Shown: piece after piece, positions 2,958 through 41,056 of the stretch
How positions within the stretch are numbered: position 1 is the first letter of the stretch
Layout: the number at the start of each line of letters is the position of its first letter
Sequence record: NC_054906.1
Direction: 5' to 3' (one strand)
Source of the DNA: Enterobacteria phage RB18
DNA length: 64,000 bases
Notes under the pieces: model-generated
Told to the model about the DNA's origin: nothing
The model's database searches: none
Seen by the model: only the letters and a program-made list of their open reading frames with translations
Made by a program: the position numbers and the translations under genes

Positions 2958-3094
2958 ATATCAAGAACCGTCATTGAAATGCAAAATAAAATTATTGAAA
3001 TAAATCCATCTGGAGTGCTAAAGAACCCAATCCAGCACGCTCTAGTGAATAGATAAAATGCAAGAAAAAGTATCACATATCCAAGAAATATCAT
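2954..3094 (-). CDS. Small hydrophobic ORF (47.1-like), 46 aa
   Basis: Hand-translated MIFLGYVILFLAFYLFTRACWIGFF...; its stop overlaps the gp47 ATG (ATGA). Below the 60-aa track cutoff. Confidence 0.35.
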   Translation of the reverse strand: MIFLGYVILFLAFYLFTRACWIGFFSTPDGFISIILFCISMTVLDI

Positions 3095-3117
3095 TATATC
3101 AAACTCCGTATAAAGCT

Positions 3118-3135
3118 AAAGGGCCGAAGCCCTTT
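3118..3135 (-). terminator. UUCG-tetraloop hairpin at the a-gt 3' end (terminator or mRNA stabiliser)
   Basis: aaagggc-cgaa-gcccttt palindrome overlapping the a-gt stop codon. Confidence 0.4.
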
Positions 3136-4336
3136 ATTTTGTAATAATGTCAAACTGTTCTTTAAAGCAGAAGCTTGAATCTTGATGTTGATACAAAAAT
3201 TCATACGCTTTTTCTCGCTCACGGTCATAAAGAGCTCGGTCAGATGACAGTTCTTTAATACGCTCGAATGTTGATTCCATATCATTTTCATCAAACCAAA
3301 CGATACCGCTATCATGCGAAATTAGCGGAGTATTATCAACACGGAATTTTAAATTTTCGCCAGTAGATTTCCAAAATACCGGAATTGTTCCACATGCACC
3401 AAGCTCGAGATGAGTATATTCTAAAGAACGTTGTAAATATTTTTTGTCCAACTTACTCAGCTGATAACCAAATCCGGATTTACTCATGCGTTCAAGCATT
3501 TCGCTATTTACATAACGGTCAAGAATTTGCGTTGGCAAATTAGGAGCAATTTTAATTTGGTCTACTTGATGAAGACGATAATATTCATATGGAATTCCCT
3601 TTTCTTTAATAGGAATGAACGCTGGAGAACGTTCCAGACCTTCCATAATAGTACTTAGTCCTGCAGGTTTAAGATGTTTTTCATGAAAATCAAACATCTG
3701 ATAAAAACCTTTCCATGTAGTCGTACGACCAATCCAACGGTTGATATTCATGTTAATTTCAGAAACATCTTTCCAGTAGGTTGATCGAACCTTCGCAATA
3801 TCCATCGGAGGCTGAAAGTTATATACTGTCGGTGCTTCTTCAATATCATCAAACAGAGAAACAGTTTCTGGATACCACTCTTTCATCAGAACTTTATTAA
3901 AATCACCATTATCGGAATGGCTAAAAATAACATCAGCTCGACGAACAGTTTCTTCTAATCCCAAATTTCGGCGCAAAGAAAGAGAAGAATGGTCATGTTG
4001 ATAAACTACAACACGAACCGAAGGTTTAATGTTATCAATAATTTTTTTATAGTTATTAATAGTGTCTTCTTCAACTGAAGTAGCAGGAACTGAATTGATA
4101 ATTAGAATATCACAATCATTTACCAGCTTAAGTGTTTTATCGTATTCTTTTGCCAATAAAACCGGAATTGAAAATGATTTATAATCATGCGCACAATTAC
4201 GAGTAAATGATTTATCTTTAGCATAAACCAAAGTCACTTCATGACCATTTTTAATAAACCAATCACGTTGCTCGAGTGAGAATTTTGTTACACCACAACC
4301 TTCAAGACCTCGAGCCATAAAAATACATACTTTCAT
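3134..4336 (-). CDS. a-gt: DNA alpha-glucosyltransferase
   Basis: 400 aa; N-terminus M.CIFMARGLEGCGVTKFSLEQRDWFIKNGHEVTLVYAKDK matches my recollection of T4 alpha-glucosyltransferase; same length and map position. Confidence 0.85.
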   Translation of the reverse strand: MKVCIFMARGLEGCGVTKFSLEQRDWFIKNGHEVTLVYAKDKSFTRNCAHDYKSFSIPVLLAKEYDKTLKLVNDCDILIINSVPATSVEEDTINNYKKIIDNIKPSVRVVVYQHDHSSLSLRRNLGLEETVRRADVIFSHSDNGDFNKVLMKEWYPETVSLFDDIEEAPTVYNFQPPMDIAKVRSTYWKDVSEINMNINRWIGRTTTWKGFYQMFDFHEKHLKPAGLSTIMEGLERSPAFIPIKEKGIPYEYYRLHQVDQIKIAPNLPTQILDRYVNSEMLERMSKSGFGYQLSKLDKKYLQRSLEYTHLELGACGTIPVFWKSTGENLKFRVDNTPLISHDSGIVWFDENDMESTFERIKELSSDRALYDREREKAYEFLYQHQDSSFCFKEQFDIITK

Positions 4337-30029: not shown

Positions 30030-30503
30030 TTATTTGAACGATTTAACGTACTGAATAGAACCTTTACTATTCACAAAGGCAATTTTACCATTTTTGTTAT
30101 ACATGGTAGCAGTACGTTGATAGCCATAAGTTTGTTTACCAGATTGATAACCAACTAATGCAAAATTATCTTCACCCATTTTATTCTGTTTAGCGCGAAT
30201 ACGTTCATGACCATGTGCCATAAGAACCTTAGCATCACCTGTTGCAATGGATCGACGAGTTTTTTCATCTTCAACTGTATTAACAAAGTCGTCAAATGAA
30301 TCAAATTTAGCATGAGATTTATTATACAGTTTTCCATCTACTGCATAATTATATCCCTGTACATCCATCTCAACTTCTGTACCATCATCCAGTACAGCAG
30401 TGATTTTCTGTCCTTTTTTAAATTTCAAAAGATCAGTAAAAGATTCAGCAATAATTTGAGAATTAATAGCTGCTTCAGTAATAAATTCTTGATATGTTTT
30501 CAT
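30030..30503 (-). CDS. Internal (capsid-packaged) protein with capsid-targeting sequence, ipII/ipIII locus
   Basis: 157 aa starting MKTYQEFITEA, the T4 internal-protein targeting leader; adjacent to lysozyme e. Confidence 0.6.
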   Translation of the reverse strand: MKTYQEFITEAAINSQIIAESFTDLLKFKKGQKITAVLDDGTEVEMDVQGYNYAVDGKLYNKSHAKFDSFDDFVNTVEDEKTRRSIATGDAKVLMAHGHERIRAKQNKMGEDNFALVGYQSGKQTYGYQRTATMYNKNGKIAFVNSKGSIQYVKSFK

Positions 30504-34965: not shown

Positions 34966-35439
34966 TTATTTGATTTGTTTAGCAGACCAAATGCGGTCTT
35001 TAATAATTTTTTGGATGTCTTCAACATACTCTAGGTCATGAGCATGTGGGTTATCTTTAAAACTATAAGCACGAGCTAACTTTTGACCTTCAGTTTTGAT
35101 TACTAAAAGCTCTTTAAGGATAGCTTCATATCTGGAGATAATTCCTTTAACAATATTTTTTTCTTGTGTAGCTTTAGGATCTGCTTTAGGAGCAGGTTTA
35201 CCCGAAGCCTTTGCAAAAGCAGCGCCAGTAGCAACTAAACTTTTCCAGGCCATACTAACTGCATTCCCTGTAAATCCTTCGGCTTTCATATCACGAGCAA
35301 ATTGGAATCGTGATTCATCGGAAGCATCTTTATAGGAATATTTACCCGCGGCAATGGCTGCTTTTGCGACAGCTTGAATTTCGGTGCTAGATGCTTCATT
35401 TAACACCGCTTCATTTAAAAATTGAGCATATGATTTCAT
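34966..35439 (-). CDS. Late-expressed protein with a divergent capsid-targeting-like N-terminus
   Basis: 157 aa starting MKSYAQFLNEA (compare MKTYQEFIAEA); Ala/Lys-rich; own TATAAATA late promoter; flanked by two near-identical terminators. Confidence 0.55.
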   Translation of the reverse strand: MKSYAQFLNEAVLNEASSTEIQAVAKAAIAAGKYSYKDASDESRFQFARDMKAEGFTGNAVSMAWKSLVATGAAFAKASGKPAPKADPKATQEKNIVKGIISRYEAILKELLVIKTEGQKLARAYSFKDNPHAHDLEYVEDIQKIIKDRIWSAKQIK

Positions 35440-35475: not shown

Positions 35476-35483
35476 TATTTATA
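35476..35483 (-). promoter_or_regulatory. Late promoter (TATAAATA) for the ORF at 34966-35439
   Basis: Minus-strand TATAAATA immediately after the upstream terminator U-tract. Confidence 0.55.
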
Positions 35484-39089: not shown

Positions 39090-39275
39090 TTATTCACCTT
39101 TAGAAATTTTATCCATAACGATAGCGATTAAACCAATTAAAAATGCTACTACAAGCGAAAACACATTTTCTGCTGTAGTTAATAATCCGCATATAAATCC
39201 AACAAACATTGAAAAACTAAAAGCGGAAGCAGAAATTGCAATAGCAACATTTCGAATTAATTCACAACGTTTCAT
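39090..39275 (-). CDS. Small membrane protein
   Basis: 61 aa with two hydrophobic segments. Confidence 0.45.
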   Translation of the reverse strand: MKRCELIRNVAIAISASAFSFSMFVGFICGLLTTAENVFSLVVAFLIGLIAIVMDKISKGE

Positions 39276-39301
39276 TTTATTCTCCTCGGTAGTTGATAGG
39301 G

Positions 39302-39331
39302 TAATAGTATCACTACCCTATCTAAAAGTAA
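39302..39331 (-). promoter_or_regulatory. Early promoter (variant leader)
   Basis: GTTTAC (39326-39331), 18-nt spacer, TGATACTAT, leader TACCCTATCAACTACCGAGGAG. Confidence 0.5.
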
Positions 39332-39333
39332 AC

Positions 39334-39567
39334 TTATTTTTTACGAAAAATTGATTTATATTTATCAGCCCATTTCTCAATGACTTTTGCCGGGCCATAG
39401 ATAACAAAGTAATCGCCAAACTCTTCACCACCGAGTTGACCGAAATCATCTAATGCATCACGAAGAACTCCATGAGGCATTTCACCCATTTTATCTTTCT
39501 TGCCAGTGTAAATAAACTCAACTTTTACATCAGCAGTTTCAGCAATAAATTCTTGATACGTTTTCAT
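39334..39567 (-). CDS. Internal (capsid-packaged) protein candidate at the ipI locus
   Basis: 77 aa from ATG 39567 (RBS GGAGAA), beginning with the exact T4-type targeting leader MKTYQEFIAE; the body is short and acidic. Confidence 0.6.
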   Translation of the reverse strand: MKTYQEFIAETADVKVEFIYTGKKDKMGEMPHGVLRDALDDFGQLGGEEFGDYFVIYGPAKVIEKWADKYKSIFRKK

Positions 39568-39607
39568 TTTGTTCTCCAATTTCACATTTGTTTTGATAGG
39601 GTAATAG

Positions 39608-39637
39608 TATCACTACTAAAACCCCATGTAAACAACT
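39608..39637 (-). promoter_or_regulatory. Early promoter upstream of the ipI-locus gene
   Basis: GTTTAC (39632-39637), 18-nt spacer, TGATACTAT. Confidence 0.5.
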
Positions 39638-39645
39638 TTGTGAAA

Positions 39646-40330
<685 letters not shown>

Positions 40331-40331
<1 letters not shown>

Positions 40332-41056
40332 TATAGTACCTTTAGTGTATTTTTAATTTTAGAAAAAAGTTCTTCAAGAGAACCATCGTTTGTAATTACT
40401 AAATCGCCATCACGAATTGGCAATCCAGCTTCTGTAATATGAGTATCATTGGATTTTTGACCAGGACGAACTACATGAATTACTGTAGCACCCATCGCCC
40501 TAGCCGCATCCATTTCATGATCTTGACGAGTATCAGGAACGATATAATAATCATAACCTGAGTTAAATTTATCAAGATAATCTAAAGCAAATAATTTTAC
40601 CCAGTACATGCGGTCGAAGTTATTAACAATCAAATCCGTACCTAGGGCTTGCATCAGACGACGGACTGACCATTGATCTTCAATATTATTTATAACGTCA
40701 GTAATTTTGTTAAATGCTACGAAATTAACTGATTCTTTTCCTTCGTCATCAAAAACAAACACACCTTTAATTGGGCTTTTACCATTAAGATAGCAAAATG
40801 CTTGTTCCATAATCGTGATTACTTCTAATTTAGTCAGATTTAAATTAGTCTCACGATCATAGTCAATTCCTTCAAACTCTTTACGAGTTAAGCAAGGATA
40901 GTCAGTGTTTGCTGCAAATACTCCCCATGCATAAGCCAATGCATCCTTAATAGGACCAGCAAGTTGATATTTAACTGCAGAATAATTGCTCATGATAAAA
41001 TCAGCAGTAGTATCTTTTCCACTACGCTTTACACCGCTTAAAAAGATTAGTTTCAT
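40331..41056 (-). CDS. 1: Deoxynucleoside monophosphate kinase gp1
   Basis: 241 aa from ATG 41056, MKLIFLSGVKRSGKDTTADFI... with P-loop. Confidence 0.85.

Follow-up and report, generated by a model that had tools for sequence, protein, structure and literature searches.

The window analyzed here, by which we mean the whole stretch of 64,000 nucleotides, is Tequatrovirus DNA that is 95–97% identical over 16 kb to phages such as TadeuszReichstein/Bas43, KIT03, and KAW1E185. The open reading frame at 39334..39567 had been recorded in an initial annotation made from the sequence alone, in which the strand was not stated. The frame exists as described, with 77 codons followed by a stop codon and a GGAG sequence 6 nt 5′ of the ATG, and it lies on the minus strand. 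The order of genes on this strand is gp3, gp1 (dNMP kinase), 57A, 57B/Acb1, ip6, trna.4, trna.3, trna.2, and ten tRNA genes. As the corresponding order in T4 is 57B, ipI, trna.4, trna.3, trna.2, and the tRNA genes, ip6 occupies the ipI slot. The same position, between the tRNA region and 57B/Acb1, had been proposed initially and is borne out by the gene order, the Pfam match of the upstream neighbor, and the alignment with T4. The interval from 57B to trna.4 is one of two polymorphic ip loci, the other of which adjoins e. The features of the locus, from upstream to downstream, are the following.

40687..40694, minus strand: nearest upstream late-promoter motif, TATAAATA, inside gene 1 (motif search)
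39646..40101, minus strand: 57B/Acb1 (anti-CBASS phosphodiesterase), upstream neighbor of ip6 (Pfam Acb1, E = 2.6e-60)
39593..39633, no strand assigned: upstream copy of a 41-nt direct repeat (promoter block), cassette boundary (repeat search, family D1)
39604..39632, minus strand: T4 early-type promoter (TTTACA, 17 nt, TACTAT, upstream TG) directly 5′ of ip6 (promoter scan)
39574..39577, minus strand: Shine-Dalgarno sequence GGAG, 6 nt 5′ of the ATG at 39567 (direct sequence reading)
39334..39567, minus strand: ip6 coding sequence, precursor of the internal protein Ip6, 77 codons plus TAA stop (ORF list, PHROG 8111, tblastn)
39538..39567, minus strand: capsid-targeting sequence MKTYQEFIAE, with the gp21 cleavage motif I-A-E at its end (identity to the T4 IPII and IPIII leaders)
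39337..39537, minus strand: predicted mature Ip6* (67 amino acids), a small beta-alpha-beta-beta-alpha-beta domain of net charge 0
39358..39447, minus strand: 90-bp divergent patch, codons 41–70 (strands beta2-beta3 and helix alpha2), separating "window-type" from "T6/Bas37-type" Ip6 alleles
39293..39333, no strand assigned: downstream copy of the 41-nt direct repeat (trna.4 promoter), other cassette boundary (repeat search, family D1; T4 alignment)
39090..39275, minus strand: trna.4 homolog (61-amino-acid membrane protein), downstream neighbor of ip6 (ORF list; PHROG 1692; annotated as trna.4 in KIT03 and T4)

The translation of the Ip6 precursor is MKTYQEFIAETADVKVEFIYTGKKDKMGEMPHGVLRDALDDFGQLGGEEFGDYFVIYGPAKVIEKWADKYKSIFRKK (77 amino acids). 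Its body had been described as acidic and 67 residues long; the length holds, but with 12 acidic and 12 basic residues the mature body has a net charge of 0 and a pI of about 6.5. A local acidic stretch within it is DALDDFGQLGGEEFGD. All other Ip proteins in the comparison (T4 IPI*, IPII*, and IPIII*, T6 Ip5, and the products of the two further leader-bearing genes of the window) are more basic than Ip6*, with pI values of 9.0–9.7. A longer reading from a GTG start at 39585, as found in some database entries (P0001, beginning MKLENKMK...), was rejected, as this start overlaps with the ribosome-binding site and the leader would no longer be N-terminal. Among the deposited Ip6 entries, those with upstream starts (MKLENKMK..., MEIKMK...) would bury the leader, and others read through to 98 amino acids; the entries concerned are P0001, P0005, P0006, and P0007. 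These variant forms likely reflect differences in start- or stop-codon annotation and not real isoforms.

Residues 1–10 of Ip6, MKTYQEFIAE, match the leaders of the T4 internal proteins IPII and IPIII exactly. The initial description of this segment as the exact T4 internal-protein leader thus holds for IPII and IPIII, but not for IPI, whose leader differs (MKTFKEFTST...) and whose propeptide is longer. A degenerate pattern back-translated from the leader gave two matches in the 64 kb (39538–39567 and 30474–30503), compared to 0.00 expected in shuffled sequences. Foreign proteins are packaged when they carry just the first ten residues of IPIII; within the leader, targeting depends on residues 4 and 7 and processing on residues 8 and 10, and the prohead protease gp21 cleaves after the Glu of the motif L/I-X-E (PMC9026906). 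All four key positions are kept in Ip6 (Y4, F7, I8, and E10), and its gp21-type site is I-A-E at residues 8–10. The leaders of diverged Ip6 subfamilies (MKTYQEFINE, MKTFNEFIAE, MKTYQEFMAE, and MKSFKEFITE) also keep the pattern, with INE, IAE, MAE, and ITE as the respective sites. Judged from these residues, Ip6 very probably becomes part of the head contents and enters the host along with the DNA, and gp21 cleavage after E10 would leave the 67-residue mature protein. Open-access proteomics, including the papers on the Yersinia Tequatrovirus phages fD1 and fPS, provided no usable listing for Ip6 in virions.

An alignment with T4 revealed conservation of the end of 57B, of the early-type promoter block (GTTTACA...GTAGTGATACTATTACC), and of the promoter and start of trna.4, while the coding body between these conserved flanks is unrelated to ipI. 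The promoter block located upstream of ip6 is thus kept upstream of T4 ipI. As both flanks and promoter are conserved, ip6 shares the regulatory context of ipI, the product of which is known to be packaged. No late-promoter motif TATAAATA was found by motif search directly upstream of ip6 or within 1.1 kb, and between the nearest upstream motif inside gene 1 and ip6 no terminator-like site was predicted. Judged from this arrangement, late read-through transcription from 40687–40694 could plausibly supply ip6 at the time of packaging.

The two copies of the 41-nt repeat that bracket ip6 are 80% identical and lie 300 bp apart, and they are plausible recombination substrates for the gain, loss, and swapping of ip cassettes. 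T4 ipI is flanked by the same early-promoter blocks. The number of ip genes at the locus varies, with one in the window, two each in T6, T2, and Bas37, and five in ECML-359. In this Gaprivervirus, five tandem leader-bearing ORFs are located between 57B and trna.4 (L005, 1202–2722), and their leaders are, in order, MNIKTYNEFLAE, MKTFNEFFNE (Ip9), MQTFHEFLVE, MKTYQTFITE (Ip5), and MKTYQEFINE. The fifth ORF (2468–2722) encodes an Ip6 relative with 39% identity and is absent from the annotation of the record. In T2 (AP018813; L016, 7798–8433), the ipI locus is occupied by Ip7 together with an Ip5-like gene, and Ip6 is absent. Several features of this record carry names that were plainly transferred in error; for example, the Ip4-type gene beside e is labeled "valyl tRNA synthetase modifier" and gp2 "tail tape measure protein".

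The gene in the window is a catalogued and named allele, Ip6, of the polymorphic ipI locus and as such is already known. Ip6 belongs to the internal proteins that T-even phages carry interchangeably. Ip6 matched PHROG 8111, "internal virion protein", with an E value of 3.9e-51 (residues 1–77 of the 77-position profile). A tblastn search of 50,697 phage records detected Ip6 in 249 of them. In 17 the protein is 100% identical, among them JK1 (where it is annotated "Ip6"), KIT03, slur07, teqhal, and AndreasVesalius/Bas42; about 220 further genomes encode Ip6 with 76–95% identity and with the same length, locus, and leader. Other annotations are ip6 in VR7, VR25, and VR26, ipVI in PST, and elsewhere internal head protein. 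The top structural match in BFVD is Ip6 of VR7 (TM 0.97). The protein thus agrees in length, locus, and leader with Ip6 of the T-even phages, from which it differs in nothing of substance. Ip6 of T6, encoded directly after the Ip5 gene, is 82% identical to the window protein and carries the T6-type patch, whereas the window protein carries the window-type patch. The ip allele series is credited to Repoila et al. 1994 (EMBO J 13:4181) by Silas et al. (PMC12373910).

Among 5.8 billion database proteins, the Ip6 family amounts to only about 19 clusters when grouped at 90% identity, and every one of them comes from T4-like phages. Diverged subfamilies with 33–40% identity are present in Gaprivervirus ECML-359, Karamvirus KMB19, and the Citrobacter phage CkP1. 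No Pfam family was matched by Ip6, and a sequence search of the PDB returned no solved structure and only insignificant matches to DyP (E ≥ 0.067). Two candidates were discarded: P0013, obtained in a search of 1.8 billion proteins with the mature body, was a compositional match via the low-complexity repeat ESYDKYGPEIG, and P0019, obtained in a profile search, was a chimera of ribosomal L14 and Ip6 on a 531-bp contig, that is, an assembly artifact.

The function of the family can be approached through phage Bas37 (KarlGJung, MZ501089; BASEL supplementary table, PMC8594841). According to the HIDEN-SEQ preprint, bas37_0260 is required on E. coli K-12 BW25113, can be lost without a defect on K-12 lacking mcrA, mcrBC, and mrr, and when deleted renders the phage specifically sensitive to McrBC (bioRxiv 10.1101/2025.11.20.689424). 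The authors of the preprint regarded the product as a previously unknown inhibitor that has only the N-terminal signal in common with IPI, IPII, and IPIII (bioRxiv 10.1101/2025.11.20.689424), and the name Ip6 is not used for it in their text. Its translation is MKTYQEFIAETADVKVEFIYTGKKDKMGEMPHGVLRDALDNFGQLAAEDYGDKIVVTGPAAVIEKWAAENKSIFRKK, which identifies it as Ip6 of the T6 type. Like Ip6 of the window, of which it is the ortholog, the protein has 77 amino acids, 64 of them identical, with an identical leader, and its gene lies directly upstream of the trna.4 homolog. In Bas37, the gene is preceded by one for Ip5 (bas37_0261, whose product is the same as T6 Ip5), a companion that ip6 of the window lacks. 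Since bas37_0260 is Ip6, its phenotype gives the Ip6 family an experimentally assigned role as a countermeasure to McrBC, an assignment that comes from a single preprint and a genetic phenotype. McrBC sensitivity upon loss of the gene was observed in Bas37, and the window allele is linked to it by sequence comparison. By analogy with Bas37, the target of the window protein is likely McrBC rather than the GmrSD enzyme blocked by T4 IPI.

While the main facts on the ip6 locus are already in the literature, the link added here is that the protein long named Ip6, the "ip6" clone of Silas et al., which was used in GmrSD tests only, and the unnamed McrBC inhibitor bas37_0260 belong to one family.

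McrBC cuts DNA containing 5-hydroxymethylcytosine (5hmC), and T2 and T6 DNA retains about 25% bare 5hmC, whereas T4 DNA is fully glucosylated (PMC13160076). The window encodes a DNA alpha-glucosyltransferase (3134–4336, minus strand; Pfam AGT, E = 2.4e-236), and the second glucosyltransferase locus lies outside it. In KIT03, a relative with an identical Ip6, this second locus (L018, 4742–5584) is annotated as a T2/T6-type beta-glucosyl-HMC-alpha-glucosyltransferase and not as T4 beta-gt. If T2 and T6 are a guide, this annotation in a relative implies that hmC may be partly bare in the window phage as well, and an McrBC inhibitor that is made beforehand and arrives with the DNA would suit phages of this kind. 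T2 has T2/T6-type glucosylation without Ip6, so Ip6 is at best partly linked to this modification, and a simple link was rejected. Because T2 is partly glucosylated and yet without Ip6, Ip6 is not the sole route to McrBC resistance. Phage teqhal, whose Ip6 is 100% identical to that of the window, has the K-12 strain E. coli MG1655 as its listed host. E. coli MG1655 is McrBC positive.

Taken together, these data are consistent with a route in which the Ip6 precursor would be expressed from a promoter context like that of T4 ipI and docked by its leader MKTYQEFIAE into the scaffolding core of the prohead. Cleavage by gp21 after Glu10 (I-A-E) would then leave the folded 67-residue domain in the head with the DNA, and upon infection the pre-made Ip6* would be ejected into the cell together with the genome. 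There it would neutralize host McrBC, a type IV enzyme cutting DNA with non-glucosylated 5-hydroxymethylcytosine, probably by direct stoichiometric binding and before any phage gene is expressed. Such protection would matter where glucosylation is of the T2/T6 type and leaves about a quarter of the hmC bare. We put the probability of this whole reading, including packaging, processing, injection, and neutralization of McrBC by the exact window allele, at roughly 0.7, and not higher mainly because the allele classes may differ in target specificity: 12 of the 13 residues at which Ip6 of the window differs from the Bas37 allele are clustered in codons 46–70, so that the window allele could have another specificity. 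The initial proposal of an injected anti-restriction effector at a polymorphic ipI locus agrees with the leader, the gp21 motif, the ipI-like flanks, and the need for the Bas37 ortholog against a type IV system, but the protein is not an unknown candidate, as it bears the name Ip6 and is present in identical form in 17 genomes. As injected proteins act before phage gene expression, they help to decide whether a T-even phage can infect a given strain. Host range could be predicted better, for example in the choice of therapeutic Tequatrovirus phages, if each Ip allele were matched to the restriction enzyme that it blocks.

The clustered substitutions fall into a patch of 90 bp (codons 41–70) that divides the Ip6 alleles into two classes, an observation that is new here. 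In a comparison with Bas45/PaulHMueller over 1.4 kb from 57B to trna.3, identity per 30-nt window was 97–100%, but only 67–77% in the patch. Between the two allele classes, 12–14 of the 30 patch residues differ, compared to 0–2 differences in codons 1–40 and 71–77, and hybrid versions of the patch exist (P0008 and P0009). For the patch against T6, Bas37, or Bas45, dS was 1.0–1.26 and dN 0.26–0.30. Positive selection in the patch was not supported, with a dN/dS of about 0.24 at saturated dS. The high dS together with this ratio indicates that the patch diverged long ago and was transferred as part of a short recombination tract, and that it is not the product of a recent adaptive burst. As natural Ip6 alleles differ almost only in this one short patch, it is the place to look for target-contacting residues.

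The patch also gives rise to the best-surviving alternative, namely, that Ip6 is packaged and injected, but that the window-type patch retargets it to a McrBC variant or another modification-dependent nuclease different from the one met by the Bas37/T6-type protein. Such a switch would account for the sharp drop in identity within an otherwise nearly invariant region and for the persistence of both classes and of hybrids in nature, and there is a precedent in Ip1, Ip2, and Ip3, each of which blocks just one GmrSD variant (PMC12373910). We nevertheless consider it rather unlikely, as the low dN/dS and several conservative core exchanges (F>Y, F>I, I>V) fit a conserved fold and function, and as K-12 strains are listed as hosts for phages with either allele.

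Less probable still is that Ip6 inhibits a GmrSD-family enzyme cutting glucosylated hmC DNA, as T4 IPI, IPII, and IPIII do, which was the target implied by the initial annotation. T4 IPI, in its mature form IPI*, is the injected inhibitor of GmrSD of E. coli CT596, and T4 IPII and IPIII are injected inhibitors of GmrSD from ECOR21 and ECOR17. For each of T4 Ip1, Ip2, and Ip3, Silas et al. 2025 identified a different GmrSD type IV enzyme as the one inhibited (PMC12373910). Ip6 has the slot, flanks, and promoter in common with IPI, and by analogy the logic of IPI, consisting of a leader, gp21 cleavage, packaging, injection, and the blocking of a type IV enzyme, would also apply to Ip6; it is this common locus and delivery system that speaks for a GmrSD target. 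However, the likeness to IPI ends at the leader. BLASTP aligned only residues 1–16, without any similarity of the bodies, and at the DNA level the body has been replaced, so that Ip6 is not simply a conserved IPI ortholog. The mature proteins are of similar size, with 76 (IPI*) and 67 (Ip6*) residues, and IPI* folds into two beta-sheets framed by helices at its N- and C-termini. IPII and IPIII have the same leader as Ip6 and use the same delivery route, but differ from it in their unrelated basic bodies (pI 9.6), their locus beside e, and their target enzymes. When ip4-10 from T4-like phages were assayed against active GmrSD variants, apparent interactions "could not be reproduced" (PMC12373910 Supplementary Fig. 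9), and T6, an Ip6 carrier, is still restricted by GmrSD from ECOR21 and ECOR17 (PMC12373910). As, in addition, the phenotype of the Bas37 ortholog maps to McrBC, an IPI-like GmrSD target is probably wrong.

Further information on the Ip6 body came from the search of 1.8 billion proteins with the mature body, in which the Ip6 cluster and one other protein, P0012, were the sole accepted matches. P0012 has 63 amino acids, is 53% identical to the Ip6 body, and lacks the capsid-targeting leader. Its gene lies on T4-like contigs of four metagenomic samples (L006–L009; Logan assemblies SRR21291447-51), in L006 at 3001–3192. In-frame stops are located upstream, its start corresponds to the residue equivalent to V14 of Ip6, and it has its own early-type promoter and ribosome-binding site. 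The neighboring genes encode DUF5417 and MotA-like proteins, and the location is not the ipI locus. Apart from this cassette, comparison of the contig with the phage collection gave no close relative. The leaderless Ip6 homolog in a metagenomic T4-like phage is new here. Because it has its own early-type promoter, it shows that the Ip6 body can apparently serve as an autonomous module acting inside the infected cell, with the leader as a separable delivery tag.

The existence of P0012 bears on the possibility that Ip6 of the window, too, is an anti-restriction protein that remains unpackaged and is made early in the cytoplasm from its own promoter, as is the case for T4 Arn. Arn (anti-restriction nuclease), an early-expressed McrBC inhibitor, is likewise small (92 amino acids) and has the same presumed target, but it differs from Ip6 in that it lacks a leader, is made after infection instead of being injected, and is encoded at a different locus, beside asiA. 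BLASTP detected no sequence similarity between Ip6 and Arn (E = 0.16 over 14 residues). While the early-type promoter directly 5′ of ip6 and the distance of the nearest late motif (more than 1.1 kb) would suit an unpackaged protein, Ip6 begins with the ten residues that suffice for packaging, which are conserved across all diverged subfamilies, and its promoter context matches that of T4 ipI, which encodes a packaged protein. We therefore regard a purely cytoplasmic Ip6 as very improbable. Hardly any credence can be given to Ip6 as mainly a structural or DNA-condensing head filler without a dedicated anti-defense role. In favor of such a role, internal proteins were historically seen as basic DNA-binding proteins with about 300 copies per head (PMC9026906). 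Against it, mature Ip6 has a net charge of 0, unlike the basic Ip proteins, its leaderless homolog appears to be expressed as an ordinary early gene, and the Bas37 ortholog is dispensable except in McrBC-positive cells.

The patch and the leaderless homolog lead to a further proposal, which we regard as doubtful: the patch might be a swappable specificity module, with two anciently diverged versions exchanged via short recombination tracts among phages that are nearly identical elsewhere, and each version would block a different variant of McrBC or another type IV enzyme, and the leaderless homolog might show how an early anti-restriction gene becomes an injected one by gaining a leader of ten residues.

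Besides ip6, two further leader-bearing genes had been pointed out in the window, a second one at 30030–30503 and a divergent one at 34966–35439, and both are present, with the N-termini MKTYQEFITE and MKSYAQFLNE, respectively.

30030..30503, minus strand: second leader-bearing gene, Ip4-type internal protein (157 amino acids, MKTYQEFITE), beside the lysozyme gene e (Pfam DUF7412, E = 5.7e-96; PHROG 3155, "internal virion protein")
34966..35439, minus strand: third gene, with the leader-like N-terminus MKSYAQFLNE/AVLNE (157 amino acids; PHROG 2280, unknown function)
35476–35483, minus strand: late-promoter motif TATAAATA of the third gene, 37 nt upstream of its ORF

From its matches, the product of the second gene appears to be an Ip4-type internal protein. 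The gene was found in 469 phage records, and one homolog from a Salmonella phage with 71% identity is annotated "lp4 protein". At least 99% identity was observed in 289 phage records, so the gene is far less variable than those at the ipI locus. T4 has ipIII and ipII at the position of this gene.

The N-terminus of the third protein contains two L-N-E sites of the gp21 type. Its gene is present in 510 phage records, in which all annotated homologs listed are "hypothetical protein", and T4 has no counterpart of it between e.8 and rnaC. Based on the N-terminal sequence, the product may be an unrecognized internal or injected protein; that this leader-bearing gene is nowhere annotated as encoding an internal protein is a new observation.
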